From IMG/VR virus record IMGVR_UViG_3300043395_001970, positions 1 to 64,000 of that record: DNA of 64,000 bases; one strand, given 5' to 3'. The position numbers and the translations under genes are program-made. Source of the stretch: a virus. Within the stretch, counting starts at the first letter, position 1, and every line of letters begins with the position of its first letter. Under the pieces are notes generated by a model. It had not been told where the DNA came from. It did not search any database and worked only from the letters and a program-made list of their open reading frames with translations. Positions 4,304-37,953 of this stretch are shown in pieces.

Positions 4304-4777
4304 TTATTTATAATATTTGAGAAGGGTTTCGGTTGTAAAAGTAACTTCATCTACACTTTTAATTCCACCCAACGTATATGTTCTATATGAATCGGGTTCT
4401 TTATCGTAAATTGAATCACCTTTTAAAAAGGAACTGAACAACTTCTTTCCCCCTTTATCTGATAAAACTAGCAGTTCTTCTAATTGTGTTGCCGATTTTA
4501 CTTTATCTTCGGCTAGCCCTTTTATAAACATTTTCTTTAAAAATTTAAAAAATATATCAGGCTTTATTAAACTAATCTTAACACAAGAAATCTTTTTATC
4601 AGGGCTAATACCTAATACAAAAATCAAAGCACTTTCTACACCACTTAAAGTTTTTGTTTTTCCATCAACATATTTGTATGTGTTGATTCTATAAACGTTT
4701 CTTGGCCTAATCAAAGTTTTTGAAACACTTTTTTCGGATTGAATAAATTTATTATATTGTAAAGTAAATGCATTCAT
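4304..4777 (-). CDS. Hypothetical protein
   Basis: 157-aa ORF translationally coupled to the upstream glycosyltransferase; no recognisable motif. Confidence 0.7.
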   Translation of the reverse strand: MNAFTLQYNKFIQSEKSVSKTLIRPRNVYRINTYKYVDGKTKTLSGVESALIFVLGISPDKKISCVKISLIKPDIFFKFLKKMFIKGLAEDKVKSATQLEELLVLSDKGGKKLFSSFLKGDSIYDKEPDSYRTYTLGGIKSVDEVTFTTETLLKYYK

Positions 4778-6069
4778 TATACTTTATTTAATTTTGGTAT
4801 TTGCATTTTAGAACTATTCACTTTTGGCATATTAAACGGAACTAATTGAGGCGCTTTCTTTACATAAGTATCTAAAATCTGAGTAAATCTTTCATGCATT
4901 TTTTCCAAAGTAAACTTATTTAAAGTATTTTCTTTCAAACCAGATGATTTTTTTAAATATTCATTGTATTTGTTAAACACATCATAAATCTTATTAGCAG
5001 CATTTGAATAGTTTACTGTAAACCATTGTGCTTCTTTCATAATGAATTGGTCCGCCGCTGATTCATCAATTGGTGTTAGAGAACCTTCCAACAAAACTGC
5101 GTGCTCTGCTGGTAGAAAATCCGTATGTCCACTCCAACCACTAACTATAATTGGTTTTCCCGTCAAAGTAAATTCAGCCATAGGTCTACCATATCCTTCC
5201 CCCTTAGTAAAAGAAATCATTGCTTTCACTTTTGGATGATGATAAAGGTTACTCATATCAGTTTCTTCCAAATCACCATGTATCAAATAAATTGGTGGAC
5301 ACTTATCACCATAGGTTTTTAGAACATCATCTATTTTTTGGCGAGTTGTTTCTCTATCTATTACACTAAAACCAGCATGCGATGTTTTTAGTAACAAAGC
5401 AGGTTGCTTATCTTTTGGAAGGTATTGGAACACCGTTGCGAATGTTTTAATTACCATACCAATATCTTTTCTATCCTGTCCTAAAGAACCTTTTAACCAA
5501 TGTCCAACAGTTAAGAAACAAAAATCTTCTTTTACATTTGATAATATATCTTTACCACTTCCTTTAGAAAATATTTCAGTGTCCACTCCTTCAAAAAGAA
5601 CTTCAATTGGTGTATTTGTTTTTATCTCACCAACTATTTGTCCAGTAGCTTGGTCTTTTTGTTGATAAACAGTACCACCCACATTTCCTTTTGTAAACTC
5701 AGATGGAACTATGATTAGATTCATTTTATTAGAACCATCAATAAAATCTTTTGGGCAGATTGTAGTTTCAACACCAGCAGTAATACCAATATTATAGTGT
5801 CCTTTTGGTTCAAACTCATTTGCTACCGAAACCTGCATGAAAACATCTGGCTTTTCTCCAATCTCTCCAATTACTCTTTCTAACATCCATCTTCCAAATT
5901 CATCTTGGTCACTTACCTGATTTTGTGGAGTGTTACCCCAACGAAGTGGGATAATCTTTATATCGTATTTATCCATCTTACGAAGTGATTTCATCAAATC
6001 TCTACAATGGTCACCATATCCACTTCTAGTAAAAATAGGTCCCTGAAATACTAATGTTGGTTTATTCAT
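4777..6069 (-). CDS. GT-B (GT4-like) glycosyltransferase
   Basis: N-terminal TRSGYG, DRKDIG, and C-terminal GEGYGRPMAE (E-x7-E) with GKPII..SGH. Confidence 0.9.
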   Translation of the reverse strand: MNKPTLVFQGPIFTRSGYGDHCRDLMKSLRKMDKYDIKIIPLRWGNTPQNQVSDQDEFGRWMLERVIGEIGEKPDVFMQVSVANEFEPKGHYNIGITAGVETTICPKDFIDGSNKMNLIIVPSEFTKGNVGGTVYQQKDQATGQIVGEIKTNTPIEVLFEGVDTEIFSKGSGKDILSNVKEDFCFLTVGHWLKGSLGQDRKDIGMVIKTFATVFQYLPKDKQPALLLKTSHAGFSVIDRETTRQKIDDVLKTYGDKCPPIYLIHGDLEETDMSNLYHHPKVKAMISFTKGEGYGRPMAEFTLTGKPIIVSGWSGHTDFLPAEHAVLLEGSLTPIDESAADQFIMKEAQWFTVNYSNAANKIYDVFNKYNEYLKKSSGLKENTLNKFTLEKMHERFTQILDTYVKKAPQLVPFNMPKVNSSKMQIPKLNKV

Positions 6070-6079
6070 ATTCTATAAC

Positions 6080-7462
6080 TTATTTAACTTTAAATACCTC
6101 AAATCTTTGGCGAGGTTTCCAATTTTGGAATGTAGATTCAATTCCATCCATTAATGTTTGACACATATTTGTATGATTCAATCCAGCTTCATTAATAAAG
6201 AACTCTCTACCTTTTAATGCATTCACTTTTCTTTCTTCTTTAGGTGTATTATACATTTTTTCAATAGCATCCGCTACATCATGCAAATCAACTCTATCAT
6301 CCCAAATATAGGGTGTAGGTACTGAACCTGCTAATGCTAATGCTCTACTCCAAACAGGTATAGCCCAAGGACCCGCTTCTGCCTTTCCTTCCCATTTTCT
6401 CCATTCATGCAAAGAACCTATCTTAATATAATCATCTGCAACTAATACATTACCATTTACTTTAAAACCACATTGGTCTTGCAATCCACCAGTTACATTT
6501 ACAATGATTGGTGTACCAGCCATTACCGATTCTGCAGTTGCTAATCCGAATCCTTCGTTATTAGCAATGTTAATTGTACAATCTGCGATATTATAATTCC
6601 AATTCAACTCATGTTGTAATCTTCTCTTTTCTGAAAACTTAATATTACAATCAGGTGCTACAGCTTCTATAACGGCTGGAAGGTCAGTTCCATTATCATC
6701 AACAGGCTGTGTATGCATTAATAACAAACACTTATCCGCTTTTTCTTTACCAATCTTTTCACAAAACAATTTGAAAGCATAGATTACATCAGCTGGTTGT
6801 TTTCTTCTAATATTACGATTACTCCAGTAAAGAACAAAATCATATTCTTTACCACCTAAAATTTCATTACGATATTCAGTAGGAACATCTGTTGGTTTGT
6901 ATATATCAGTATTAATACCATGTGGTACATAACTTACTTGCCAATCTTTTTTTGGAATCCAAGTTGGTTTATCTGTTCTTTGACCAATTCTACTTATAAT
7001 ACCATAAGTTTGACGAGATATACAACCAATCCAATCACAACTTTCATAAAAGTTACGGTTGTACATTGGGTCTGGTAAATCATCCCAAATTGCATAAAAC
7101 AATAAAGGAATATTTTGTCTTATTTCATGCTCTATATCATATAACCAAGTCCAATAGCGTGGGTCAGTAAAGTGTAGGATAGCATCTGGCTTTTCTGCAT
7201 TAATTAATTGACGAATCAAATCAGCATTACCATATCCATTCCAAGGAAGTATTTTTACACTAGCATCAGCTATTCCATAATTTTTTTGAATGTCTTCGCT
7301 TACATCTAAAACTCTACCTTGCTCTGGGTGGTTGATTGCTGCACCTACTTGAAACCAATCATATTTGTGAACTGTCCCTAATACCAATTCTTTGGACATA
7401 GTGGCGATACCACTTGCCATTCTTAAATCATCTGAAAGTAACAATATTTTTTTCTTTGCCAT
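6080..7462 (-). CDS. GT-B (GT4-like) glycosyltransferase
   Basis: KKILLLSDD..SGIA, VPHGIN, NRNIRRKQ, NEGFGLATAE (E-x7-E), GTPIIVNVTGGL. Confidence 0.92.
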   Translation of the reverse strand: MAKKKILLLSDDLRMASGIATMSKELVLGTVHKYDWFQVGAAINHPEQGRVLDVSEDIQKNYGIADASVKILPWNGYGNADLIRQLINAEKPDAILHFTDPRYWTWLYDIEHEIRQNIPLLFYAIWDDLPDPMYNRNFYESCDWIGCISRQTYGIISRIGQRTDKPTWIPKKDWQVSYVPHGINTDIYKPTDVPTEYRNEILGGKEYDFVLYWSNRNIRRKQPADVIYAFKLFCEKIGKEKADKCLLLMHTQPVDDNGTDLPAVIEAVAPDCNIKFSEKRRLQHELNWNYNIADCTINIANNEGFGLATAESVMAGTPIIVNVTGGLQDQCGFKVNGNVLVADDYIKIGSLHEWRKWEGKAEAGPWAIPVWSRALALAGSVPTPYIWDDRVDLHDVADAIEKMYNTPKEERKVNALKGREFFINEAGLNHTNMCQTLMDGIESTFQNWKPRQRFEVFKVK

Positions 7463-8654: not shown

Positions 8655-9104
8655 TTAAACTTTAAGTTTTAATTTAGTAATTTGCTTAGGGTCAGTACCA
8701 TAAGCCTCCGCAATTTCTTTGATGTGTAGTTTACCAGAAGTTGTTTGGTGTAATATTAAATAATATTCTTCAGCTTGTGTTGTTGATACATTATAATATC
8801 TTGCAATCAATTCAATAATCCAATCTTCATACTTTTCCGATGAAGTTGGTTTCATATATTTTAGGAATGCTCTTGTTTTTGGAATTAGTCCTATTAGGCA
8901 TAGGTACATTGATTTAGGTGATACTTCTTGCAAATATGGTTGTACATCTGCAATTAATTCTATCCATTCAGGTTTCATAGAAAGAAAACGGAGTATCATA
9001 TAGTTACTCCATGTCTTTTTATCACTCTCATCAAGAGTATCCCAATATTTAGGATTCTTATCTTGCGTTATTGCGTTAATATGGTCAAATAATGTTTTAG
9101 CCAT
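8655..9104 (-). CDS. Clamp loader small subunit (T4 gp62-like)
   Basis: LFDHINAI...YMILRFLSM...FLKYMK...IARYYNVS pattern, located next to the RFC gene. Confidence 0.75.
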   Translation of the reverse strand: MAKTLFDHINAITQDKNPKYWDTLDESDKKTWSNYMILRFLSMKPEWIELIADVQPYLQEVSPKSMYLCLIGLIPKTRAFLKYMKPTSSEKYEDWIIELIARYYNVSTTQAEEYYLILHQTTSGKLHIKEIAEAYGTDPKQITKLKLKV

Positions 9105-9408
9105 TTTTAATATCCAAATCTAATGAACGAGTTTCTGCTGCTTGTAATTTATCTTTTTGTTCTAATGCTCTTAGTTGAACAGGCTTCATAAGTTCTTGCT
9201 CTGCTCCACAATCACCACAAAGATACACTTCAAAAGGTATCATCATATCCTGGTCACCCCCATATGCTAATTTAGATAACTTTCTCATCTTCATAGCTGG
9301 TAAGAATGTTTTACCACCACACTCACAAAATACTGGTACTGATGCTGATATATCTACTTTTGGTTGTGGTTGTTGTGGCATTTCGCCTTGTCCGATAATG
9401 TTTGCCAT
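9097..9408 (-). CDS. Small zinc-ribbon protein
   Basis: CECGG...CGDCG cysteine pairs. Confidence 0.7.
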   Translation of the reverse strand: MANIIGQGEMPQQPQPKVDISASVPVFCECGGKTFLPAMKMRKLSKLAYGGDQDMMIPFEVYLCGDCGAEQELMKPVQLRALEQKDKLQAAETRSLDLDIKNG

Positions 9409-10347
9409 TTATATTATATTTAAAATTTGTATTAAAGTTGCAGCAGTTGGTATTTCTTTATCAATTGCTGAAAAGTGTTTAAACTGCCCATCTGCCAAAA
9501 GAAGAATTACACCAGATGTATTATCCGCTGCATATTCATCCACCTTATCATAAAGTAAAGTAAATAGGTCAGTAAAATCAGTTACCTTACTATCTATAAG
9601 TGCCTGTCTGATTTTCATATATTTGTTTCTCTTATCATCGTTTGATTTAAGAATATCTAATACTTTCATTTTGTAATCATTCTCTAATAGATTTTGTACA
9701 TCCACTTTTAACTTACCTTTTGTAGAATTCATTTGGCAAGTATTAATTACTTTACGAATATCAGGATATGATGAATCAATAATAGGAACTAAATCTTTTG
9801 GGTCAAACTCAATACTTTCAGCTTTCAGAATTTTACTCATTTGAATTGCCACATCCTTTTTAGTTGGTGGGATGATTTGGAAAGATTGACATCTACTTTG
9901 GATTGGTTCAATTACTTTCTCTACATAGTTACAAGTCAAAATGAATCGGCAGTGTGAACTGAAAGTTTCCATAATATTACGAAGCATTGGTTGTGCTAAG
10001 TAACTCATGTAATCAACCTCATCCAATACTACCACTTTCCATTTTTTGAATCCCATAGATGAAGCAAACCCTCTTACCTTATCTCTGATTGTATCAACAT
10101 TTCTTTCATCGGATGCGTTGATAATCATATAATCACAATCAATTGATTTTACAATTAACTTAGCAAGAGTTGTCTTACCCGTACCAGCTTTTCCGTACAA
10201 CAATAGGTGTGGTATATCATTATTTTCAATGAATATTGAAACTTTTTCCTTTAGGTGTTCATTACCCACATAATCTTCTAATTTAATTGGGCGATATTTC
10301 TCAACCCAAAGACTATGATTTACATTTTCTTCTTGATATTCAAACAT
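9409..10347 (-). CDS. Clamp loader AAA+ ATPase subunit (RFC-small / T4 gp44-like)
   Basis: LWVEKYRP, Walker A GKAGTGKT, INASDER, LDEVD, FILTCN, SRC. Confidence 0.96.
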   Translation of the reverse strand: MFEYQEENVNHSLWVEKYRPIKLEDYVGNEHLKEKVSIFIENNDIPHLLLYGKAGTGKTTLAKLIVKSIDCDYMIINASDERNVDTIRDKVRGFASSMGFKKWKVVVLDEVDYMSYLAQPMLRNIMETFSSHCRFILTCNYVEKVIEPIQSRCQSFQIIPPTKKDVAIQMSKILKAESIEFDPKDLVPIIDSSYPDIRKVINTCQMNSTKGKLKVDVQNLLENDYKMKVLDILKSNDDKRNKYMKIRQALIDSKVTDFTDLFTLLYDKVDEYAADNTSGVILLLADGQFKHFSAIDKEIPTAATLIQILNII

Positions 10348-10353
10348 ATATTT

Positions 10354-10818
10354 TTATTTTCCAGTTGAACCAAATCCACCATCACCTCTTTCCGAATCTG
10401 AAAGTTCATCAACTTCCTTAAATTCAATTGGTGGGTACGGTATAATCATTATTTGTGCAATTCTATCGCCTACCTTATAGAAGTCATTTGATGTATCTTC
10501 GGTGTTTTTTGTCTCATCATAAAAACGTTCACCACCAAATATTTTATTAAAGGTAGCTTGGAGTTCACCTCTATATCCACTATCGCATACACCAACTGCA
10601 TTACTTAAATCCAATCCAGTCTTTCTAACGGATGAACGAGGAAATATTAATCCTACAAACCCTTCAGGTATTTCTAAGGCAATACCCATGCCATATGTAA
10701 TTTGTTCAGGTGTATCTTTTATAATTGTTGTTGCTACCAAATCCATTCCAGCATCACCAACTTTGGCGTACTTTGGAATTACTGCATTAGGATTGAGCTT
10801 CTTTATTTTCACTTCCAT
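10354..10818 (-). CDS. dut: Trimeric dUTPase
   Basis: AGMDL, PRSS, GVCDSGYRGE, GDRIAQ, RGDGGFGSTG. Confidence 0.97.
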   Translation of the reverse strand: MEVKIKKLNPNAVIPKYAKVGDAGMDLVATTIIKDTPEQITYGMGIALEIPEGFVGLIFPRSSVRKTGLDLSNAVGVCDSGYRGELQATFNKIFGGERFYDETKNTEDTSNDFYKVGDRIAQIMIIPYPPIEFKEVDELSDSERGDGGFGSTGK

Positions 10819-11167
10819 TTTGTAATTGTTTAAATGATTCTCTTTGTTTTTCTCTTAACTGCTTACCTTCTTCAGTAAGCTCTCTAGCAAATAATTTAAA
10901 TAATTTTCCTGTTTTACTATTTTGAAAAGTAATATAAGAATTTTCAAGATTTGTAATTGAAAAAACTACTTTAGGATTTTCATCTGATGGTAGGTTTGAA
11001 TCAGTCCATGCAAATATTTGTGGTTCATCTTCATCAAATTGAAAACACCATTCGCATTCTTCATATCGTTTTTGTTGTAAATTAATTTCACCAATTTGTT
11101 CTAATTGTTCAGATTGGTCTTCAATCTTTACTTCTTCTACTTTTTTTGTTTTTTTAGCCTTTGCCAT
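10787..11167 (-). CDS. Hypothetical protein
   Basis: 126-aa ORF within the operon; no motif recognised. Confidence 0.7.
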   Translation of the reverse strand: MAKAKKTKKVEEVKIEDQSEQLEQIGEINLQQKRYEECEWCFQFDEDEPQIFAWTDSNLPSDENPKVVFSITNLENSYITFQNSKTGKLFKLFARELTEEGKQLREKQRESFKQLQNGSENKEAQS

Positions 11168-11179
11168 ATTGTTTTGTTT

Positions 11180-12391
11180 TTATCTTCCCACTTCACCTAA
11201 ATACTTTTCCTTCATTTCTTCCCAACTCATTCCAATAGCATCTATGTAAAATAAGTGTTCAGGTTTTAATCTGCCTTCTTCATGCAGTTTTGTATATCTA
11301 CTAATAGCATGTTTCTTCCACCATTTGTTGATGTAATCCACACCTTGCGCAAATTTATCTTTTAGTACTAATTGGTCTTCAGTAATTCTATCACAAAGGA
11401 AATCATTACCATTCTCATACATCATTGCCATATAAACACCTCTCTTAAAACCATGATGATATTCAGTTGCCTTAATACCACACTCCTTAAAGATTTGTCC
11501 TAATATCTTTTGTTTGATACCACTAACAGGTCCGTTAGCTTCATATCCCATATTAGCACCATTACGAGCTCTTTCTCTCGTAATATTTTCCATATACCAA
11601 TCAGCTTTATTTTCTTTTAACCATTGATGCCAAGGGTCATAGAATTTATCATCGGGTTTAATACTAATCTTACCTGCTGATTCACCTAAAGTTTTGAAAA
11701 GTGGGATACCATTATATTGCGAATGAATTCCGTATAGTGACGTTGTACCAACTGCAATCAATACGTTATCGTATTTTGTTTTCCAATAGTTTCTAACTTC
11801 AGGTACGGTGGTCATCATAGCGATTAACTTACCACCTAAGAAGTTATAACCCAATGGTTGAGTACATACAATTGTAGAAGCAATAGTTGTATTATTTAAC
11901 TTACCTTTTACAAACTTATCATCTTTAGTCCAACCAATGTAGTTATCTCTTACACCTAATGCAGTTACATCAGATGCTAAAGAAATTTGCCCCAATAGTT
12001 TTCCACTCACTCTATCCTTAACATTAATCTTAACGTTACGGCCAGGGTTTGCTGTGAAATCCATTGTGTGAATCATTCTACGGATTTGTGACCATTTAGT
12101 TGCTTCTTTGGCATCTTCTACTATTTCAACGTAAGGGTCTAACGCTTCAATTTCTTTTATCGTTAGCTCCTTATCGTTGATATTAGTTGGCCTCCATTGA
12201 GAATCATAGTAAGCTGCTATTTGGGATTTAGCCTGAATCATTGTAGGGTCTTGCAACTCTACCCACTTCTTATACAAAGTTTGCTCCTGCACAGACATCG
12301 TCATTAGATAGTCCATGTTTTCTTTTAACTTTTCTTTTTCAGTATCAAAGTCAAAGACAGGTTTTTGCGGTTCAGTATCCCAAAAGCTCAT
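11180..12391 (-). CDS. Druantia DruA / DUF4338-like protein (orphan)
   Basis: PGRN..VKD..GKLLG.I.L.SD...RDNYIGW, YNFLGGKLIA, TTSLYG..SQYN..LGESAG motifs, which I recognise from the DruA family. Confidence 0.78.
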   Translation of the reverse strand: MSFWDTEPQKPVFDFDTEKEKLKENMDYLMTMSVQEQTLYKKWVELQDPTMIQAKSQIAAYYDSQWRPTNINDKELTIKEIEALDPYVEIVEDAKEATKWSQIRRMIHTMDFTANPGRNVKINVKDRVSGKLLGQISLASDVTALGVRDNYIGWTKDDKFVKGKLNNTTIASTIVCTQPLGYNFLGGKLIAMMTTVPEVRNYWKTKYDNVLIAVGTTSLYGIHSQYNGIPLFKTLGESAGKISIKPDDKFYDPWHQWLKENKADWYMENITRERARNGANMGYEANGPVSGIKQKILGQIFKECGIKATEYHHGFKRGVYMAMMYENGNDFLCDRITEDQLVLKDKFAQGVDYINKWWKKHAISRYTKLHEEGRLKPEHLFYIDAIGMSWEEMKEKYLGEVGR

Positions 12392-12393
12392 AA

Positions 12394-13089
12394 TTACTTA
12401 ATTTCTACGAGGTAATAGTTAGATGTGTAATCACCATCAGTAAATGATACGTGTGATAATCCTTTAGATGAAATCTTCAATGAAGAAGTTTTAGAACCTT
12501 TGTTAGCCATTAAGATAGCTTTCAAATACTTTGCTGAGAAAGCAATTGGTTCAATATCCTCTTTACATTTGCAATCCACACCAATAGAGATTCGGTTAGA
12601 GTTAATTGAAGAATAACCCAAAATAACTTCACCTTTCTTATCTTTACAAGTGAATGTAAATGTATCAGCGTCAGCCAATGCACCTTTTGATTTGATGAAC
12701 TTATTTACAAAGTCATCATTCAATGTAATCTCTGCATCAAATTCAGGCAAAGCCTTCAAATCAGGTACCGCAGGAATTACTGAAGGAGCTGCTAACATGT
12801 ATTGTACCTTAGTTCCTTTATCAGAGAACTTAACTGCTCCAGTTGTTTCTTCAACTGAAATTGCTTCATCCAATACACTCAACAATCCTTTCAATTGTGA
12901 AGTTGTATAGATACCGAATTCACCCTTTGGGAAATCATTTTCAGCTACAATAACATCACCTAAAAGGGTCTTGTCATCTGAAATCATTCTTACTGACAGA
13001 TTCTTACCATCTGCCTTAATCATAACGGATTCAATCTCACCACCAAGGTTATAACGATTGATAAAACCATCAAATTTACTTTTGTTCAT
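12394..13089 (-). CDS. DNA polymerase sliding clamp (T4 gp45/PCNA-like)
   Basis: 231 aa; EFGIY..SQL, FSAKYLK, LKISSKGLSHVSF..YYLV; lies between PolB and the clamp loader. Confidence 0.82.
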   Translation of the reverse strand: MNKSKFDGFINRYNLGGEIESVMIKADGKNLSVRMISDDKTLLGDVIVAENDFPKGEFGIYTTSQLKGLLSVLDEAISVEETTGAVKFSDKGTKVQYMLAAPSVIPAVPDLKALPEFDAEITLNDDFVNKFIKSKGALADADTFTFTCKDKKGEVILGYSSINSNRISIGVDCKCKEDIEPIAFSAKYLKAILMANKGSKTSSLKISSKGLSHVSFTDGDYTSNYYLVEIK

Positions 13090-13154: not shown

Positions 13155-15671
13155 TTAAAATGAAAAGAATTTTTCAGCCGTTTTAGCTGCGGAAAGAACC
13201 TCTCCCCAACCCAATGCTCCATAAAAATCCTCTAATTTCTTTAGGAGTTCTCTTTCAAAGATTTTATCATAATCTATATATTGGGTTACCAATTCAATTA
13301 CTTCAGGTGCATCATTGTGTCCTTTGAATGCCAATCCTTCCAATCCATATGGATTTTGTTTTAGATATACCCATTTTATTTTATCACCATCTTTCATAGG
13401 TTCGTATTTAGATGGACAATTAAAGTGAATCAACAATTGATTATGTGCAATTGCTGCCTTAACGTGTGCAGGTGTTGCTGATTTAAATTGGAACATAGCC
13501 GTTTGTTCTTTTTTCTTTGGAAGATATTTAGATAACTCCTTAACCGCAGAATTCTTAGCTATACTAACAACATCCATTTTGGAAAGAGATTTTTTGAAAG
13601 CTTGAATCTTATCTGTCAAAATATCTTCAGTATCACCTCTTAGAATTTGAATAAGAACTTCACTCATAAACTTACGGAACTCCGCAGGGTATGATGAACG
13701 AACCACATCCAAACCTTTCACATCCAATCTATCCATAGGAATACCATTCTCCGCAATAATCCATTGAGCATATCTTTTCTTAGCAATCCATATACCACTT
13801 CTACTAACAAACTCTTTCTTAATTTGGAAACGATGTTTATCTACATTGAATATTTTTTTACCCAACATGTTATAGAAGTTATTGATATAGTCTTGCGTTT
13901 CACCAGCAATCTCATCAACTAATAGGGCAATCTCTTTATCATCCTTTTGTTTCCACTCAGGATACCTATGTTCTAATAAAGGTACTGCTGAAAAGAATAC
14001 GGAATCAGTATCAATGTAAATGTTAAAATCTTTACCTTGCGTTCCTAACTCTTTGTTATATTTTATGTTTACCATTTCAGCAGTTGATTTAATCACTGTC
14101 TGACCTGTTAAGGTTACAGCTTCAGCGTTATCAACATCATAGAAACGGAAAGCAGGTAATCCCAGTACTCCATATAAAGAGTTCAATAAGATTTTTTGTA
14201 CTGTCTGTCTTTTCTTATAGAATGCATACATCTCTTTATTACCTTCCTGTCCATATTTCTTTTCCAATTTACGGAATTCAACCCTTTGGTCAAACCACAA
14301 ATCCAATATATCAGGAATACATCCTACTTTTTGTGTTGTATAGAGTACACCATTTGATGATACTGCGTATTTACTTTCATCAAATAGCTTCTTTAGATTT
14401 TCTTTTGAAATTTGCCTACCACCAATTGAATACATATCAACTTCACCTCTTAGGAATTTCTGAGCATCCCAATCATCAATCTTTGCCACCTTCGTTTCAG
14501 GTGATATGTTTGTTGTCATAATGATTGATGGATATAGTGAAGTTAAGTCCAAGTCATAAATCCATTCGTACTTACCAACGATAGGTGCCTTAACGTATGC
14601 TCCGATAAACTTTTCTTCGTTGTTCTCTCTGATAGCTTCCATACGTTCTTGTCTATCCGCAGGTTTGTTAGGTGCTACAATATTTTTACGTTTAAGGTAA
14701 CATAGCATCGCACCTTCTAAAAATTTAGATGAATAAACAAAATCTTCGTATGGTACGTGTCCAGCATGGCATATACCTCTACAAAGGTCTACAAACTGCA
14801 ACTTACGTTCCATATCAACCACCAATTGTACATCCACTAAGTTATACTCAATGAACTTCTCAATATCGTTATGAAACAATTCATCTAATTTACCCTGATA
14901 TTCAACCTTACCTCTACCCAACTCTTTCATAGCTACCGTATCCAAACGATAGTTATCTAATTCAACATAGGTATATGCTTTGTATAATCCGATGTAATCC
15001 AAATAGGATACACCAGCCATAAAGAATCTCTTACGATAGGGTGACCAGAAACACTCACCAATAGGTGATAATCTATTAGCATGTCTTGCACCTAATAATC
15101 TTTTAATACGATTGTACAAATAAGGAGTATCAAAGTAATCAATGTTCCATCCCGTAACGATTGATGGATTTATCATTTCATATAATTCCAAATACTTTAG
15201 AATCAAATCTCTTTCATCTCTAAATGGGATTACACTACGATTACCGGTATTACTCTCTTTCATCTTACCGGCTTTATCCATAATCAAAACCCAATAGTGG
15301 TCAGTTGCAGAATCATGCAAACCAATAGCGGTTAATTCATTCTCTGCCTTTTCCATATCCGGCAGACCTGTTTCCATTTCAACTTCAATATCAAAGGTTA
15401 GAATAACGTGTCCATCTGAAGGTATATCCGAATCGGTATAGGTATCAACTAAAATACGAGTTGTTTCCGGTACATCCGATTCAAATAATTCAGGATCATC
15501 CTTTTTAAATTTGAATATTTTTGTAAGCTTATCACCATAAAGGGAAGTGTATTCGCCTCTGTCAGCTTTTTCGTATGCATATCTTACATATGGAAATGAA
15601 CGATAACCAAGCCTATCATCCCACAAATGTACTAAATTCTTCTCTCTTTGGTAATATACGTTTTGATACAT
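13155..15671 (-). CDS. Family B DNA polymerase (T4 gp43-like)
   Basis: Exonuclease motifs FDIE, GWNIDYFD, YNLVD; polymerase motifs DLTSLYPS, KILLNSLYG, YIDTDS, KKRY; C-terminal clamp-binding FFSF. Confidence 0.97.
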   Translation of the reverse strand: MYQNVYYQREKNLVHLWDDRLGYRSFPYVRYAYEKADRGEYTSLYGDKLTKIFKFKKDDPELFESDVPETTRILVDTYTDSDIPSDGHVILTFDIEVEMETGLPDMEKAENELTAIGLHDSATDHYWVLIMDKAGKMKESNTGNRSVIPFRDERDLILKYLELYEMINPSIVTGWNIDYFDTPYLYNRIKRLLGARHANRLSPIGECFWSPYRKRFFMAGVSYLDYIGLYKAYTYVELDNYRLDTVAMKELGRGKVEYQGKLDELFHNDIEKFIEYNLVDVQLVVDMERKLQFVDLCRGICHAGHVPYEDFVYSSKFLEGAMLCYLKRKNIVAPNKPADRQERMEAIRENNEEKFIGAYVKAPIVGKYEWIYDLDLTSLYPSIIMTTNISPETKVAKIDDWDAQKFLRGEVDMYSIGGRQISKENLKKLFDESKYAVSSNGVLYTTQKVGCIPDILDLWFDQRVEFRKLEKKYGQEGNKEMYAFYKKRQTVQKILLNSLYGVLGLPAFRFYDVDNAEAVTLTGQTVIKSTAEMVNIKYNKELGTQGKDFNIYIDTDSVFFSAVPLLEHRYPEWKQKDDKEIALLVDEIAGETQDYINNFYNMLGKKIFNVDKHRFQIKKEFVSRSGIWIAKKRYAQWIIAENGIPMDRLDVKGLDVVRSSYPAEFRKFMSEVLIQILRGDTEDILTDKIQAFKKSLSKMDVVSIAKNSAVKELSKYLPKKKEQTAMFQFKSATPAHVKAAIAHNQLLIHFNCPSKYEPMKDGDKIKWVYLKQNPYGLEGLAFKGHNDAPEVIELVTQYIDYDKIFERELLKKLEDFYGALGWGEVLSAAKTAEKFFSF

Positions 15672-15684
15672 GTACTAAATATAA

Positions 15685-17358
15685 TTATATAGCTGGAGCT
15701 ATTTTCTTTTTACCTAATTTTTTATTTACTGTTGCATTTCCGACTAATGTTGTACTACCACCCTCAACAAAGTTTTTACCAAAATGGTTGTCAGATAAAT
15801 CAGTGCCTTCTGCCAATTGTATTGGGGTAAACTCCTCATCTAAATATGAGTCCTGATAGTTTTGTATTACAACTGCGTTATACAGAGATTCAAGATTATC
15901 AGTACTACGATTAGCATCTATGTAGTTAATAATACCTCTACGAAGCCAATCTTCTTTAACTTCTTCAAAATAAGTTTCCATCATTTCCAACCTAAGATTT
16001 AACTTTCTAGTATCAGTACCAGCATTATGACCAGCGAACCCATGCTTATTTACCAAATTATCCTCAACAACTTTTTTACCCACTGTTGTTTGAATTTTTG
16101 CAATCTTTGGTTCTAATATTCCCGTATCGGGATTTTTAACTTTAACTGCTTTAGATACATCAGGAGTTATATCTCCCTTTTTATCAATATAGATATATGC
16201 AGTTTTTGCTGTAATTGTTTGTACCATTCTAATTAATTCCTCTGCATATAGAATAGGATTCTTTATATAAACACGCTTACCACTATCTTTAAGAGACTTT
16301 AAACAACCATATACAATAGCATGAGTAAATACAAAGAAATTTAATACATTAGACCAGTTACTACTTTGACCAGGTATAATTTTAATTACCTTCTTTTTGT
16401 TTGTTAAATCGTATTTACTAACAAACGCATTTGAAACAATAGACCAAACATTACTAACCTGAGTTAGTGTATTTGTACTTACTTTAGATGTGTAATCGCA
16501 TATTTCATCCAATCCATTATCATCACTCCAATTTGAATACTTTGATTTACTCAACCATCCAATAGATGTGGCTATCATTTTTTCAAAACCACTTTTAGTT
16601 TCAACTTTATCAGCAGCCTTTTCACCACTCAATATATTAGATAAAAATCTTCTAATTTCTATGTTTCCAATTTTAGCAACAGGATTAATCAAATCTCTAA
16701 TAAACTCAACAACAGGTGCCATTGAAATCATTCTAATACTCATCTTTTCAGGCATAGTTGATGAGTTTACAACTTTAAATGCCTTTTGTATAATTCTAAG
16801 ATGCCCCTCAACGAACATAATTACAGGAAGTTTAGCATCTAAGAAATAATTCTTAACATTTTCATCCAAATCACAAAAAGCCTGTTCAGCTATTTGTTCG
16901 AATTTCGGTCTCTTTCCATCCGTATCGGCGAATAATTTATTCAATTCATCTGATTCAGGATAATATCTTTCTTCTTCGGTAGCCGGTTGTATCCACTTTA
17001 CAAGGTGTTTAAACCTATGCTGTCCATCCAATAACACATATTTTCTACCTTTATCTTTTATGTCTTGAAATACCTCAATTGATTTTTCAATACTTTCAGT
17101 TGTGCCTTCGTTTTCTTTTATATCTAACAAAGACTTTAATACAGCATCAACATCAGCAAGAACTAATGGAGTTGCCCTACCAGTACCTTCATATAAGGCA
17201 ATTAAAAAAGAATCCACTCTTTCAGCTGGCCATTGGTTAAACATTCTCTGCATTAACTTATCATCAATGTGAATTAGGGGCACCCATGTCATCAGGTCTC
17301 TAACTGTAATACTTTTAGGAATTGGAATACTTCTTTCTGCGTAAGGTCTAATAGCCAT
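15685..17358 (-). CDS. DUF262 (GmrSD-like ParB/Srx) protein with a possibly degenerate C-terminal HNH
   Basis: MQR..W, SFL..LYEG, LLDGQHR and F..VNS motifs; C-terminal NH..FVEGGST..N..VNKK. Confidence 0.7.
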   Translation of the reverse strand: MAIRPYAERSIPIPKSITVRDLMTWVPLIHIDDKLMQRMFNQWPAERVDSFLIALYEGTGRATPLVLADVDAVLKSLLDIKENEGTTESIEKSIEVFQDIKDKGRKYVLLDGQHRFKHLVKWIQPATEEERYYPESDELNKLFADTDGKRPKFEQIAEQAFCDLDENVKNYFLDAKLPVIMFVEGHLRIIQKAFKVVNSSTMPEKMSIRMISMAPVVEFIRDLINPVAKIGNIEIRRFLSNILSGEKAADKVETKSGFEKMIATSIGWLSKSKYSNWSDDNGLDEICDYTSKVSTNTLTQVSNVWSIVSNAFVSKYDLTNKKKVIKIIPGQSSNWSNVLNFFVFTHAIVYGCLKSLKDSGKRVYIKNPILYAEELIRMVQTITAKTAYIYIDKKGDITPDVSKAVKVKNPDTGILEPKIAKIQTTVGKKVVEDNLVNKHGFAGHNAGTDTRKLNLRLEMMETYFEEVKEDWLRRGIINYIDANRSTDNLESLYNAVVIQNYQDSYLDEEFTPIQLAEGTDLSDNHFGKNFVEGGSTTLVGNATVNKKLGKKKIAPAI

Positions 17359-18835: not shown

Positions 18836-19636
18836 TTACCAAAAATTTTCAGTACCTTCCGGCACTTCGTATGTTGTTAAATGATGTACAACTTCAGTAT
18901 TAAAATCCACACTATTTTTTGGATAGGGTTTGATTTCATGCTTCAGTGCTTTCATCAATTGTTTTTTTTCTTTCTTATCTTGCGCCAATATTTGAATGTA
19001 TCGGTGCTTTGGTGGCTCCATTCTTCTCCAAAACTCTTTATATCCCTGCTTACCAATTTCTCTTTTAAGATGGTCTAAGTTACCACTACCCCACATTGAG
19101 AATACAGTTCTACTATGAATCCAATCGTATGGTTCTTTTTGTAGTGAGATACCCCAATTAGGCATCAATGCAATATCAGATGAAATACCCTGATATATCC
19201 AATTGGTTGCTTGATATATTCCACCCAAATGCTCTTGTCCAGCATCTGCATAGGATAGTAACAACTTAATGTTCTTATCATTTTCTTTCAACCACTTAAA
19301 GGATTGTGATATAGCAAATGATTCAATATTAGAACCATACCCATCATCACAATACAAACGTGTCAACTCTAATGCATTATCTTTCGTCAATCCTTCACAA
19401 ATAGAAGTTGCTGCTTTTGCTCCAACAGGAAATCCATAAATGATACAGCCAATTAGTTTATCACCATCAAAGGTACTAGCATCCTCTGCTTTGTAATAGA
19501 TACCTAATGCGTAACGGCAAGAAGTCCAAGCGTGAGTGTAGTGTTTCTTAACAATAATATCCTTAGCGATATTCTTTGCTATTGGTGCTACATACACTTT
19601 ACTTACATCACAATATTGTTTACCTTCAACTTTCAT
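18836..19636 (-). CDS. Mom-like (GNAT-fold) DNA base modification protein, paralogue 1
   Basis: KHY.H, LIGCIIYG.P, LELTRL, NIES.AI, LSYAD..Q.H.G.IYQATNW.Y.G, KHRY. Confidence 0.88.
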   Translation of the reverse strand: MKVEGKQYCDVSKVYVAPIAKNIAKDIIVKKHYTHAWTSCRYALGIYYKAEDASTFDGDKLIGCIIYGFPVGAKAATSICEGLTKDNALELTRLYCDDGYGSNIESFAISQSFKWLKENDKNIKLLLSYADAGQEHLGGIYQATNWIYQGISSDIALMPNWGISLQKEPYDWIHSRTVFSMWGSGNLDHLKREIGKQGYKEFWRRMEPPKHRYIQILAQDKKEKKQLMKALKHEIKPYPKNSVDFNTEVVHHLTTYEVPEGTENFW

Positions 19637-19891: not shown

Positions 19892-19923
19892 CAAATATAC
19901 AAAATTATTTTGAATCTACCAAA
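19892..19923 (-). promoter_or_regulatory. Bacteroidota-type sigma promoter
   Basis: TTTG-N20-TATATTTG. Confidence 0.8.
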
Positions 19924-20678
19924 TTTATCGGGTCCATTTTATAAACTTCATCAATAATATCTAATTCTACCTTCGGATATGGTAAGACCTCATGTTTAAG
20001 CGATTTTAAGAGTGCTTTACGTTCCTTCTTATCTTTGGTTAGAATGTACACATATCGGTGCTTACGGGGTTCTCTTTTAATCCAGAATGGGCTTGTAACC
20101 ATTGTCTGAATTATCTTTGGGTCATTCGTTCCGTACTTCACATAGGATGTTCGAGAATGATGCCATTCATCATCCTCACTCCATTTGAAACTCCAACTAT
20201 CTGACCATCTGATTTTGTTACCCTGATATATCCAATTGGTAGCTTGATATACCGTTCCTAAGTGTCCAGCGTTTGGGTCTGAATAAGATATTAGTGCTTT
20301 GATGTGTAGTGCGTTTTCTCTTAACCAATCAAATGTTCTTCCAACAAACCAGCTCTCAATATTACTACCATACCCATCAAATACAAAAAGGCGTGTCAAT
20401 TCTAACACACCATCTCTTGGTAGTAATTCAGAAATAGATGCACCTGCATTTCTACCAACCGGGTCACCATAACAGGCAACTCCAACTAACTTTTCATTTA
20501 CACCACTAAAAAAAGAATGTTCTTCATCAGACATATAAAATAATCCTATGGCATAGGATACCTTTGTCCATATACCACTATAATGGTTATTGACAATAAT
20601 ATCCTTTGCTATATTCTTATTGATTTCTCTTATTGAGAATTTGGATATGTCACAATATTGTTTACCTTCTACTTTCAT
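19905..20678 (-). CDS. Mom-like (GNAT-fold) DNA base modification protein, paralogue 2
   Basis: NHYS, LVGVACYG.P, LELTRL, NIESW, ISYSDP..GH.G.VYQATNW.Y.G, KHRY. Confidence 0.88.
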   Translation of the reverse strand: MKVEGKQYCDISKFSIREINKNIAKDIIVNNHYSGIWTKVSYAIGLFYMSDEEHSFFSGVNEKLVGVACYGDPVGRNAGASISELLPRDGVLELTRLFVFDGYGSNIESWFVGRTFDWLRENALHIKALISYSDPNAGHLGTVYQATNWIYQGNKIRWSDSWSFKWSEDDEWHHSRTSYVKYGTNDPKIIQTMVTSPFWIKREPRKHRYVYILTKDKKERKALLKSLKHEVLPYPKVELDIIDEVYKMDPINLVDSK

Positions 20679-29607: not shown

Positions 29608-32600
29608 TTATCCGTATATATTTTTGTTAGCTGCTTCTAGTATTTTTGCAAATCTTTTATCTAATTGCATTTCAAACTTAATTTGGCCGCCATATCCAAC
29701 ACCATCTTCTCTAGCAACAATAGTGGCAATTGGTATTACTCTACCTTTTTTACCAGCTTTGTATGCCAAATATGGTGGTTCTTCATTGGTTACCGCAAAT
29801 AAACCTTGTTTGATTTCTTCAAAGTTTGATGTTTGGAATATATTTTGCAATACAGCTCTATCTAAAGAATTAGGTCCAATTGCCATAGATTCTTCACCTT
29901 CACCAACTGCTTTCAATGGAAACTCCTCTCTAATAGCACCCAACATACCTTGCTTCAACTTAGGATTACTTCCCAAAGAACTAATTACAGCTTTTTGGTG
30001 AGCTTTGTGTACATCTTGTACATTTTGTAGATATTTAACTGCTCCTTTATCTCCCTTCTTTGCTAAAGTGGTAATTGCTGATAATACTACTTTATTAATA
30101 TCTCTACTACCTTTACCTGCTTGCAATTTAGCTACTGCTGTTACTAAATCTATTTTTTTAGATTTAACAATTGCTTGGAATTCTGGGTCATTAGCTACTG
30201 CATTTTGTAATTTTTTAATATTAGCTTTTCCAAAATCTCCTAAAGCCTTTCTTTGATTCTTTTGATATACATTTGGATTAATATCATCAGGAATATTCGG
30301 GTCCCATTCAAACAATTTACCCGTGCCAGAATTTAAGAAGTTTACTGCTGTTGATTTCTTTAAAGATACTTCATCTAATATTTCTTGTCCATCTTTGGTT
30401 TTAATTTTGAAATATGCATCAGTTGAAAATCCTTTATTCTTTTTATAATCAGCCAATCCCATTGCTTCAACCTCACCTTGAGTATCCCAACTACCAGCCT
30501 CAATTGTTGCGCCAGGATATTCTTTAGCTAATCTATTTCTAATAGCTCTTCTGTTGTTTACTGCGGCTTTAATCCAACTTGTACCAACAACCCTACTACC
30601 TTCAACTTTTAATTTAGGGTTTGCTGCTATTTGTTGCTTTTCATGCTCTAATAAAGAGTTAAATAATGCTGCCGCTTGTTTATCATCTAATGTAGTTGAA
30701 ATCATAGTCATCAACTCACCCGCTTGTGCTGATATTTGTCCAGCTCCACCAGGTAAATCTGAAAAATGTGACCACTTTGCTGTTTCTGTTGTTGCTCTAG
30801 TGTTCATCATTCTTTCCAATGCTTTTAAATGTCTTGGTGGAACTTTTGCATTAGCATATAATTCTTTTGGTAATTTATATGGAGCCGGTGGAGGTCCTAT
30901 TTGGAATTTTTTATTTTTTTCTGCAAATTTAGCATCATCAGGTTGTTGCTTCTGAAGGAATTCTTTTGATTTTAAAGTATCTACCTTAGAAAGTGTTTTG
31001 TCTTTACCACCAATAATTCTAGAACCTTTGGTTGGTTTAGTAGCTTTTGCGGTTGGTTCTAAATCTTTTTCTTTTGTTTTTCTAAAACCCAAACCTTGAC
31101 CAGGAATTTCTTTTGGTTTTTTTTCAGTTGCTCCTAATTCACTATTACTAACGCCTGCTTTTTTAAGTAATCCAACTGCTGATTGATATGCTTGTATTTG
31201 TCCTTTGTTTTTAGAACCTTTGTATTTTAGTGCAGATGCTACTTTAATATCTTTTCCTGTTTCTGGATTTTTTACCGTTTGATTCAAAACATCATCTGCT
31301 TTTTTTATAGGATTTTCATTTAAAATCTCTAATATAATTCCATCAATTATTGAAATTTCTTTTTTCATTGTATCTTTTTCTTTCTTTTTATTATATGAAT
31401 CAATCATTTCTTCCATTTGTTCAGGACTAATTTTCATATTTTCCAACCCATCAGCAATCATTTCGGTAAACTTAATAAATTGTGCATCCATTTCAGCTTC
31501 ACCTTCAGCATCCGCAAATAATGCTGCTCTACCAGCTCCTTTTAGGAAAGTTTCTGCAATAACATGTGGTACAAATTCAATAGCAACGTGCTTAGCAAAA
31601 CCAACTGCACCATAGGATAATCCACCCATAGCTGCACCAAATAGTGCGGTGGTTACTATTTTAGTACCAACTGATTTAATTGCATCTTTTTCGTGATGTG
31701 ATAGAGAATTCCATCCACCCGCTTCACTAAATAGTTTTCCAACAGCAACACCAGCTGTTTTGAATTCTTTTACTTCATGTTTAAACCCATCTTTTACTGC
31801 TTTCCAAGCACCAGAAGCTTTATCTCTTAACCTTTCACTAATACTCTTTCTTGCCTCAGAACCAGGCTTATGATACCCCATATTGAAGTATTCCTTTTCT
31901 TTCTTATTCCAATTTTTTAACTTTTCTTTTATTCTAGATAAAGTTGATGGTTTTGTAGAAGTTGCTGGTTTTGGTTCATCTTTTTTCTTTCCCTTACCAC
32001 TCATTGTTTCAATACCCATCTTTTCAGCAAAAGCATTTGCTCTTGGGATGTGTGTTTCAATATCCTCATCAACAATACGAACTTTCATTTTAATTGGTTC
32101 TTTATCACCATTAGGCGGAGTATGTTTCATATTATACGCCTGAATTGTTGCCCATCTATGGTGCCCATCAATTACATATCCATCTCGTGTCACCATTATA
32201 GGTGCTGTAATAAATGGATTGTTCGGGTCTTGCTCTAAAGAATTTACCATGCCCACAATTTGCTCGCCAACTAATTCACTTTGAGTTGCTTTTAGTGATG
32301 ATGCAGGTACTTCAACAGGATCACTTACATTTATACCTTCTGATTTTAAATAATCTTCAAATTCTTTTTCTACATTAACATGCTGAGTGTTTTCTTTTGC
32401 ATACAAATCATCATACTCTTGTTTCTTGTCTGCAGGGATTTCACCATCGTTAGGTAATCCCATTTTCTTTCTTACATTTTGGTCAGCAATTCTTTTTGCT
32501 TTTGCTTCACCCTCAGAACCAGGTTTTGGTTTACCACCTAATTGTGGCATTTTATCTCTTGGTATTCCTATATTTTCATCACAGAATTTATTTGTACCAG

Positions 32601-37577: not shown

Positions 37578-37953
37578 TGGTGGAGATGGTGGGATTCGAA
37601 CCCACGTCTTACGAAGTAACCATAATACCAGCGTTTCACACGTTTAGGATAAGGTTTAATCTTATTCACCTTCCAAAATAATTGGGGCCGTTTGGTTAGA
37701 ACAGCGCTACCACCAACCGATTTAGAGTTTCGGTAAACTTAGGTTTCACTTCTTGTTAAATTCCACGAGTGATGCGGAAGGTGATTAGGCTGCTACAGCG
37801 TAATCAGCACCTACGAATGCCATAACGTCATCGAAGGTCCAAGTAGATAATTCTACATCATTTATTGTTTGATTCCGAGATTTAAGTGGTTTGAGAACCT
37901 TCCCACTACGTGTGATACTACAATTCGCATCGCAATCAATTCCAGTCATCCCC
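37578..37953 (-). ncRNA. ssrA: tmRNA (transfer-messenger RNA)
   Basis: 5' GGGGATG pairs with 3' CATCTCC-A-CCA, including the G3-U70 alanine determinant; T-arm GTGGG-TTCGAAT-CCCAC; internal tag reading frame ending ...DYAVAA-TAA; 376 nt. Confidence 0.96.

Follow-up and report, generated by a model that had tools for sequence, protein, structure and literature searches.

A DruA/DUF4338-family protein with a predicted GNAT fold is encoded among the clamp and clamp-loader genes of a T4-like phage

Introduction

What does a relative of a bacterial defence protein do in the replication gene cluster of a phage? The question is raised by a gene at positions 11,180–12,391 (minus strand) of a 64,000-nucleotide stretch of viral DNA (positions 1 to 64,000 of the IMG/VR record IMGVR_UViG_3300043395_001970; hereafter, the window). 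The contig from which the window is taken is 81.8 kb long and, by the CheckV estimate, ~44% complete; its source is a T4-like myophage. The gene encodes a relative of DruA, the signature protein of the Druantia type I defence system, for which no biochemical function is reported in the literature searched. An initial annotation of the window had pictured it as an orphan DruA-like gene, possibly a third Mom-like DNA-modifying enzyme coupled to the replisome or else a decoy against host Druantia.

The phage copies of DruA occur solo, are strongly conserved, are very abundant in metagenomes and are present in culturable cyanophages and pelagiphages. The function of the DruA fold can thus be studied more simply in a solo conserved phage gene than in a defence locus of five genes. 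The reading that we favour, with a probability of about 0.4, is that the phage protein is an active acyl- or aminoacyl-transferase that is expressed with the replisome and acts on DNA or on a DNA-bound target.

Results

A divergent phage branch of the DruA family

The element under study is:

11,180–12,391, minus strand: DruA/DUF4338-family gene, 403 residues, ATG start, stop codon at 11,180–11,182 (open reading frame; PF14236; PADLOC DruA; PHROG 19197)

The open reading frame has exactly the limits given in the initial annotation, and a hidden Markov model (HMM) search bears out the family assignment. The Pfam DruA model, PF14236, matches the protein with 65.7 bits (E 5e-18), above its gathering score of 27, with residues 82–332 aligned to positions 46–295 of the 297-position profile; in a six-frame search of the genome the same model scores 59.3 bits at this gene. 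The PADLOC DruA models also match (E 1e-15), as does the phage family PHROG 19197 (E 2e-27), to which no function is assigned. No Pfam acetyltransferase family was matched in the Pfam scan, and sequence and profile searches against the PDB returned nothing meaningful. Based on the Pfam DruA model, members of the phage clade score ~60–70 bits compared with 212–238 bits for cellular DruA, and identity between the two is 20–25%. The protein therefore belongs to a divergent, phage-specific subfamily of DUF4338/DruA.

This subfamily is large. We retrieved 3229 relatives from a database clustered at 90%, the top 120 of which are all at least 88% identical to the query, and 975 clusters at 50% identity (E<=0.001); the protein is encoded at 300 IMG/VR loci. 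The nearest homologues from isolates are in Pelagibacter myophages (32–33% identity), one of them with a DUF4338 annotation. Homologues with 25–30% identity are present in about 25 T4-like Synechococcus phages. Based on Foldseek, relatives are also present in the Klosneuvirinae giant viruses.

Similar phage genes have been flagged before. DruA-like proteins in six Synechococcus phages are listed in the Phold preprint, and a paper on DndF fusions describes DUF4338 as a GNAT (PMC10853773). A 2025 paper annotated the homologue in cyanophage S-SCSM2R as 'mom' from structural similarity and stated that mom was previously unidentified in cyanophages (PMC12801897). In our analysis that gene, ORF152, is a DUF4338 homologue, and the S-SCSM2R genome has no match to PF25680, the Mom family. 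A clear PF25680 match (112.6 bits) is found in Synechococcus phage S-SSM7 (NC_015287.1, 216,832–217,392). With PHROG 19197, Pfam, the Phold preprint and the cyanophage paper already pointing to such genes, the gene studied here is an added member of a known, uncharacterised family.

Absence of Druantia partners and other contexts of the family

The helicase of Druantia, DruE, is a superfamily 2 helicase whose hallmark is an MZB/DUF1998 domain (PF09369). Neither PF09369 nor Helicase_C (PF00271) has a match anywhere in the 81.8 kb record (~44% complete), and MZB was not found in a close relative of 160 kb or in the complete genomes of Mosig, HTVC008M, S-CAM9 and S-SSM7, all of which carry a homologue. 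In Druantia type I, DruE and DruB–D lie beside DruA; the neighbours of the DruA-like gene are replication genes. The initial statement that the gene has no druBCDE partners holds well beyond the window, as no Druantia hallmark is present in the record, in the 160 kb relative or in the four complete phage genomes. We conclude that the gene is a genuine member of the DUF4338/DruA family and is not part of a Druantia system.

DruA domains occur in several other DNA-centred contexts. Across the family we found fusions to the ParB N-terminal domain (ParB_N), DUF3102, helix-turn-helix (HTH) domains and homing-endonuclease modules, the last of which may represent mobile-element insertions rather than functional fusions. 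ParB-like domains are found both fused to DruA domains in metagenomic proteins and beside Mom in phage Appa. Two cyanobacterial genomes (G051 and G054) have a conserved cassette that encodes a NurA nuclease, a HerA (DUF87) ATPase and, in last place, canonical DruA (locus L119, 9715–13743, and locus L120, 8773–12816). DruA scores 215–237 bits in these cassettes and no MZB helicase is nearby; they may represent an unnamed DruA-containing conflict system.

A conserved place in the replication cluster

The genes around the DruA-like gene are:

13,155–15,671, minus strand: family B DNA polymerase, C-terminus ...KFFSF (open reading frame, translation, conserved synteny)
12,394–13,089, minus strand: gp45-like sliding clamp gene, immediately upstream of the DruA-like gene (phrog_223, E 1.5e-13)
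10,787–11,167, minus strand: conserved open reading frame of 126 residues and no known family, 12 nt downstream of the DruA-like gene
10,354–10,818, minus strand: dUTPase (PF00692, 69 bits)
8,655–10,347, minus strand: clamp-loader block (AAA/DNA_pol3_delta2/Gp44_lid and Phage_clamp_A matches), with the three genes that follow
9,409–10,347, minus strand: gp44-like clamp loader
9,097–9,408, minus strand: open reading frame of 103 residues between the gp44-like and gp62-like genes
8,655–9,104, minus strand: gp62-like gene

Only 2 nt separate the TAA stop codon of the clamp gene from the ATG of the DruA-like gene. A scan for promoters and terminators around the DruA-like gene gave no signal above chance, which argues that it is co-transcribed with the clamp gene; judged from the sequence, it is predicted to be transcribed with the clamp and clamp-loader genes. 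The order polB, clamp, DruA, 126-residue frame (in nearly all cases), dUTPase, gp44, 103-residue frame, gp62 is kept in 80 out of 80 related loci fetched. The placement right after the sliding clamp gene, inside a clamp and clamp-loader operon, is thus confirmed. In some relatives (L043, L044 and L048, around 5813–6001) ~190 nt rather than 2 nt lie between the clamp stop and the DruA-like start, and this spacer may be a small inserted open reading frame or element.

The link to replication genes also holds in distant phages. In the cyanophages S-CAM9, S-SCSM2R and S-SSM7, which represent three genera and have 25–30% identity to the window protein, the homologue lies within the gp45-gp44-gp62 cluster. 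The slot differs, however, being between gp44 and gp62 in the cyanophages and between gp45 and dUTPase/gp44 in the window.

The recurrence of DruA domains in several different cellular conflict cassettes could suggest another role for the phage gene, as part of a defence or exclusion module against competing phages that would act with neighbours such as the 126-residue open reading frame or a DUF262/ParB-like protein. The 126-residue frame follows the DruA-like gene, is conserved in nearly all of the 80 loci and extends 32 nt into the start of dUTPase. It matches no Pfam or PHROG family, and its product could act as a partner to the DruA-like protein. A weakly GmrSD_N/DUF262-like protein is also nearby. 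Against an exclusion module, no nuclease or helicase effector is adjacent, and the neighbours vary among the cyanophage, pelagiphage and window lineages, which have only the location in a replication cluster in common. We therefore consider this explanation very improbable. The GmrSD_N/DUF262-like protein (557 residues, window positions 15,685–17,358, minus strand) is encoded between polB and two Mom genes; its match to this ParB-like family is weak (E 0.02) and it has no PHROG match.

Predicted fold

We modelled the DruA-like protein with AlphaFold2 from an alignment of 50 sequences. The predicted local distance difference test score (pLDDT) is 93.5 and the predicted template modelling score (pTM) 0.90. 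The model divides the gene into the following parts:

12,344–12,391, minus strand: predicted disordered N-terminal peptide, residues 1–16 (MSFWD...PVFDFD), pLDDT ~56
12,143–12,343, minus strand: predicted N-terminal helical region, residues 17–83 (model helices 15–64 and 74–83)
11,345–12,142, minus strand: predicted GNAT-fold core, residues 84–349 (GNAT and Mom fold matches span model residues 79–349)
11,444–11,671, minus strand: predicted helical insertion between the last two core strands, residues 241–316, ~75 residues (model secondary structure)
11,183–11,344, minus strand: predicted C-terminal helical region, residues 350–403, with family-invariant W358 and R365 (model; conservation)

The stretch modelled as disordered is residues 1–14, and the helical region after it runs from 15 to 83. 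The core strands in the model comprise residues 86–91, 119–126, 132–140, 168–176, 213–218, 233–237 and 318–323, and the helical insertion is mildly basic (isoelectric point 9.1). Based on Foldseek, every match to the PDB is an acetyltransferase, with a probability of 0.99 for RimI and 1y9k, although none reaches E<=0.001. A VIA-align search of 48,161 PDB representatives, which is independent of Foldseek, retrieved 225 representatives at Z>=5, and the top 50 entries listed are without exception GNAT-type acyltransferases or close relatives in fold. The first of the 48,161 is Mom of phage Mu (8bv8; Z 10.0, root-mean-square deviation 3.9 Å, 168 of 202 residues aligned, model residues 79–335), followed by AAC(6')-Ib at Z 8.8 and then by a continuum of GNATs. 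A canonical cyanobacterial DruA was also modelled, with pLDDT 90.8. We consider the GNAT fold of the DruA-like protein, as modelled, to be solid, in agreement with the GNAT-like fold that had been suggested from the sequence and with the published description of DUF4338 (PMC10853773).

In GNATs the acyl-CoA pyrophosphate is bound by the motif Q/R-x-x-G-x-G/A. The DruA-like protein has a conserved QPxGxN..GGK loop where this motif would be expected, after strand 4 and just before helix 3; the loop is an inexact fit to the motif.

Conservation and the decoy hypothesis

Across 75 orthologues the median ratio of nonsynonymous to synonymous substitution rates (dN/dS) is 0.09, indicating strong purifying selection. 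Thirteen residues do not vary among six cyanobacterial DruA proteins and are the same in 85% or more of the phage-type members: K131, G134, R148, P179, K188, L189, Y207, T216, G221, Y226, N327, W358 and R365. In the model, K188 opens helix 3, T216 is in strand 5 and Y226 is in the helix-4 region. Helix 3, strand 5 and the helix-4 region hold cofactor and catalytic residues in GNATs. From the conserved sequence we infer that the DruA-like protein is a catalytically intact enzyme.

These observations bear on the suggestion that the protein, as a decoy or inhibitor, imitates host DruA and so poisons host defences that contain DruA. In favour of this, the gene stands alone as a relative of a defence-system protein in a phage of lytic type, and phages do carry mimics of host immune components. 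However, the phage clade is deep and, as shown by the Pfam scores and identities above, divergent from cellular DruA, and its spread over pelagiphages, cyanophages, the window lineage and giant viruses is not that of a recent capture from a host. In addition, the family-invariant, putative active-site residues have been kept under strong purifying selection. An old, divergent phage clade under purifying selection favours an active enzyme over a recently captured decoy, and we rate the decoy, including the version aimed at host Druantia, as highly improbable.

A conserved N-terminal peptide

Among 54 unique orthologues, the predicted disordered peptide at the N-terminus is as conserved as the GNAT core, and F3, W4, F13 and F15 do not vary. 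The nearest family representatives start with FFDI, FFDL or LFDF. Clamps of the gp45 type bind short hydrophobic-aromatic peptides such as LDFLF of T4 ligase and the RB69 polymerase tail (PMC6212786). By analogy, the N-terminal peptide is a candidate clamp-binding linear motif that may tether the DruA-like protein to the clamp. Of the other proteins encoded in the window, the polymerase has the terminus KFFSF and one Mom protein the terminus NFW.

Relation to Mom

Mom of phage Mu, a GNAT, modifies adenine in double-stranded DNA at N6 with glycine taken from Gly-tRNA(Gly), and it has an essential HTH-like insertion, residues 175–209, before the last strand (PMC13219725). Catalytic residues of Mu Mom include S124, R151, R111 and Y159. 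The two other Mom genes implied by the phrase 'third Mom-like' are real:

18,836–19,636, minus strand: Mom-family gene, one of a tandem pair (PF25680, 156.5 bits)
19,905–20,678, minus strand: Mom-family gene, the other of the pair (PF25680, 147.6 bits)

The paralogues are 49% identical and the pair is kept in the close relatives G001–G003. The first ends with ...NFW, reminiscent of the polymerase tail ...KFFSF. We found no co-dependence of the DruA-like gene with Mom, and this candidate association was rejected: four out of five complete phages checked (Mosig, HTVC008M, S-CAM9 and S-SCSM2R) carry the DruA-like gene but no PF25680 gene, and in the fifth, S-SSM7, the PF25680 gene is ~70 kb from the DruA-like gene. 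In Microbacterium phage Appa (L088, 978–2237) a ParB-like nuclease domain protein, a Mom-like acetyltransferase and tRNA-Gly(ccc) are encoded in a row; Mom next to this tRNA fits the published use of Gly-tRNA by Mom.

The segments of the DruA-like protein that had been likened to Mom by eye exist, GKLLGQISL at residues 130–138, SQYN at 224–227 and FKTLGES at 232–238. In the model they appear to fall on the same structural elements as their Mom counterparts and in the same order, strand 3 and then helix 4 with the following strand. We compared the DruA profile, for the whole protein and for the GNAT core, in global and local hhalign runs with a single Mom and with a 13-sequence Mom alignment, which included D108 Mom, a protein whose numbering agrees with all eight published functional residues of Mu Mom.

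A proposed enzyme acting on DNA and the alternatives

We propose that the DruA-like enzyme would be made together with the sliding clamp and the clamp loaders, take an acyl or aminoacyl group from acyl-CoA or a charged tRNA, and place it on phage DNA or on a DNA-bound target during replication. Its action would be analogous to, but independent of, that of the Mom enzymes encoded 6.5 kb away, and the enzyme may be tethered to the clamp by its conserved N-terminal peptide, which is aromatic and acidic. The place of the gene among replication genes in the window lineage and in cyanophages, and the DNA-centred fusions and cassettes of the family, speak for this proposal, as does Mom, which sets a precedent for a GNAT that modifies double-stranded DNA with Gly-tRNA as the donor.

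Several results weigh against this proposal. In all hhalign runs of the DruA profile against Mom the probabilities are <5%, so that a relationship to Mom is undetectable at the sequence level, and the DruA-like protein has no PF25680 match at E<=0.1, compared with ~150 bits for the true Mom proteins in the window. The structural lead of Mom over ordinary GNATs is small (10.0 versus 8.8), and for the cyanobacterial DruA model Mom is first (Z 9.3, 164 residues aligned) but tied with ordinary acetyl-CoA GNATs at 9.0–9.2. A fold in common also says nothing about substrate. The overall charge of the DruA-like protein is near neutral. The aromatic-acidic motif, which was defined post hoc, is present in the first 25 residues of 5 out of 69 family representatives, a minority though above the 0.6% of other windows, and pelagiphage homologues are not beside the clamp but follow a gp55-gp47-gp46 block. 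The 81.8 kb record has no tRNA gene, and hence none near the DruA-like gene, and the 27-tRNA bank in the 160 kb relative is a general one, with two Gly tRNAs, ~60 kb from the gene. Finally, DruA offers no biochemical precedent of its own in the literature searched.

Two lines of support were dropped. The by-eye motif match is not sequence evidence of a relationship to Mom, given the hhalign probabilities, and a Gly-tRNA beside the DruA-like gene can be rejected as support because the record has none and the bank of the relative is general and distant. Of the initial Mom-like claim, the structural half stands, with Mu Mom as the top-ranked structure, while the half that concerns the Mom family finds no support, given the lack of a PF25680 match, the small lead and the tie for bacterial DruA. 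In a Foldseek search of BFVD a Mom entry appears only at rank 33. The statement that the modelled protein is closest to Mom is thus only suggestive.

The same comparisons define the main rival explanation, which is that the protein is an ordinary acetyl-CoA GNAT that acetylates a protein (replisome, host or virion) or a small molecule (a polyamine or a nucleotide-related metabolite), with its position in the cluster reflecting early or middle co-expression only. Hundreds of classical N-acetyltransferases are nearly equal to Mom in the fold search (Z 7.5–8.8), a result in line with the tie for bacterial DruA. The conserved glycine-rich QPxGxN..GGK loop is as in CoA-binding GNATs, whereas Mom has lost the glycines, and the nearly neutral net charge also fits such an enzyme. 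Against this explanation, the family is found repeatedly in DNA-centred surroundings or fusions (with ParB_N, DndF, NurA-HerA, the helicase of Druantia or the replisome cluster), and the large extra helical domains and the insertion are absent from typical small-molecule GNATs. On balance we find it rather unlikely, while regarding it as the chief competitor of an enzyme that acts on DNA.

A tRNA or aminoacyl-tRNA is another conceivable substrate. The protein would then resemble the TacT/AtaT toxins or TmcA, and would reprogram or shut off host translation. TmcA and TacT-type GNATs are among the fold matches, relatives carry the 27-tRNA bank and the window phage carries a transfer-messenger RNA (tmRNA). 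However, the TmcA and TacT matches are no better than those of other GNATs, the gene context is replication rather than translation, and no tRNA gene is adjacent. We regard this possibility as improbable. The tRNA bank of the relative (G001, ~77.8–85.2 kb; L104 17807 to L105 5231) covers nearly all amino acids. Three of its genes are for tRNA-Met, and one odd call has an anticodon of just two bases, 'tc'.

The source phage

Other genes of the window are consistent with its T4-like myophage source. We identified structural genes for a tail sheath, a gp19-like tube protein and a baseplate protein, and replication and nucleotide genes for gp32, a UvsX/RecA homologue, a DnaB-type helicase, ribonucleotide reductase, family B polymerase, the gp45-like clamp and the gp44/gp62-like clamp loaders. 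All of the phage genes identified are on the minus strand. In a scan of prokaryote genomes for homologues with a single protein query, the sole match was on a 2.5 kb contig binned with a Cyanobium metagenome-assembled genome, which is at best a weak hint of the host.

The tmRNA is the sole RNA gene detected in the 81.8 kb record. It lies between structural genes (window positions 37,578–37,953, minus strand; Rfam RF00023, 76 bits), and the tag peptide called by ARAGORN ends with ...ADYAVAA. Two adjacent glycosyltransferase genes, both phrog_2170, are at 4,777–6,069 and 6,080–7,462 (minus strand), the second with a 'GT4-conflict' Pfam match slightly under the cut-off. Giant open reading frames (~2000–2800 residues) with collagen triple-helix repeats are at 29,608–35,589, 51,389–59,779 and 61,819–63,831, and similar ones are found in L100 (3–8408 and 9437–17632). 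One ends in an endosialidase chaperone (Peptidase_S74), and these are presumably fibres.

Discussion

The analysis establishes the family, predicted fold, conservation and synteny of the DruA-like gene and the lack of Druantia partners around it, whereas its enzymatic activity, DNA as the target, the donor and a tether to the clamp are proposals. If the protein does modify DNA, it would represent a second GNAT family in DNA hypermodification and would point to how DruA may work. Should it prove to be an ordinary acetyltransferase, the finding amounts to a routine annotation. A broader version of the DNA-modification proposal is that DUF4338/DruA, independently of Mom, forms a second family of acyl- or aminoacyl-transferases that act on nucleic acids. 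In marine and freshwater T4-like phages its members would ride the clamp by means of the N-terminal aromatic peptide and write an undescribed mark on new DNA, and bacterial DruA would rely on this chemistry for marking or sensing DNA in Druantia I, in the NurA-HerA-DruA cassettes and in the DndF fusions. We put this forward as speculation that is unlikely to be correct.

Compared with cellular DUF4338/DruA (PF14236), the phage protein has a significant HMM match over the whole domain, and the modelled cyanobacterial DruA matches it in the predicted order of elements and in PDB neighbours. It differs in having no DruB–E partners and a lower Pfam score (60–70 versus >210 bits), in its extra conserved N-terminal aromatic peptide and in its location in a phage replication operon. 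The phage DUF4338 proteins (PHROG 19197; Pelagibacter phages Mosig and HTVC008M; cyanophages S-CAM9, S-SSM7, S-PRM1 and S-SCSM2R ORF152) are 25–33% identical to the window protein and differ from it in the N-terminal region. The window lineage carries two true Mom genes, whereas four out of the five complete relatives checked carry none.

With the classical acetyl-CoA GNATs (AAC(6')-Ib, RimI and Naa50/60; Z 7.5–8.8) the DruA-like protein has in common the core fold, a loop rich in glycine that joins strand 4 to helix 3, and a Tyr that is conserved in helix 4. Unlike them, it has large extra domains and an insertion, is found in DNA-centred genomic contexts and matches no Pfam acetyltransferase family. 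Mom (PF25680, 8bv8) makes N6-carbamoylmethyl-adenine in double-stranded DNA in a Gly-tRNA(Gly)-dependent reaction. Both Mom and the DruA-like protein are phage proteins with a GNAT fold, and the stretch aligned between them is the longest in the PDB search. In both, a helical insertion precedes the last strand of the core, and the two insertions may be equivalent in position, based on the model. The DruA-like protein is ~170 residues longer than Mom, with helical domains at its N- and C-termini, and it has kept the glycine-rich, putative cofactor loop that Mom has lost.

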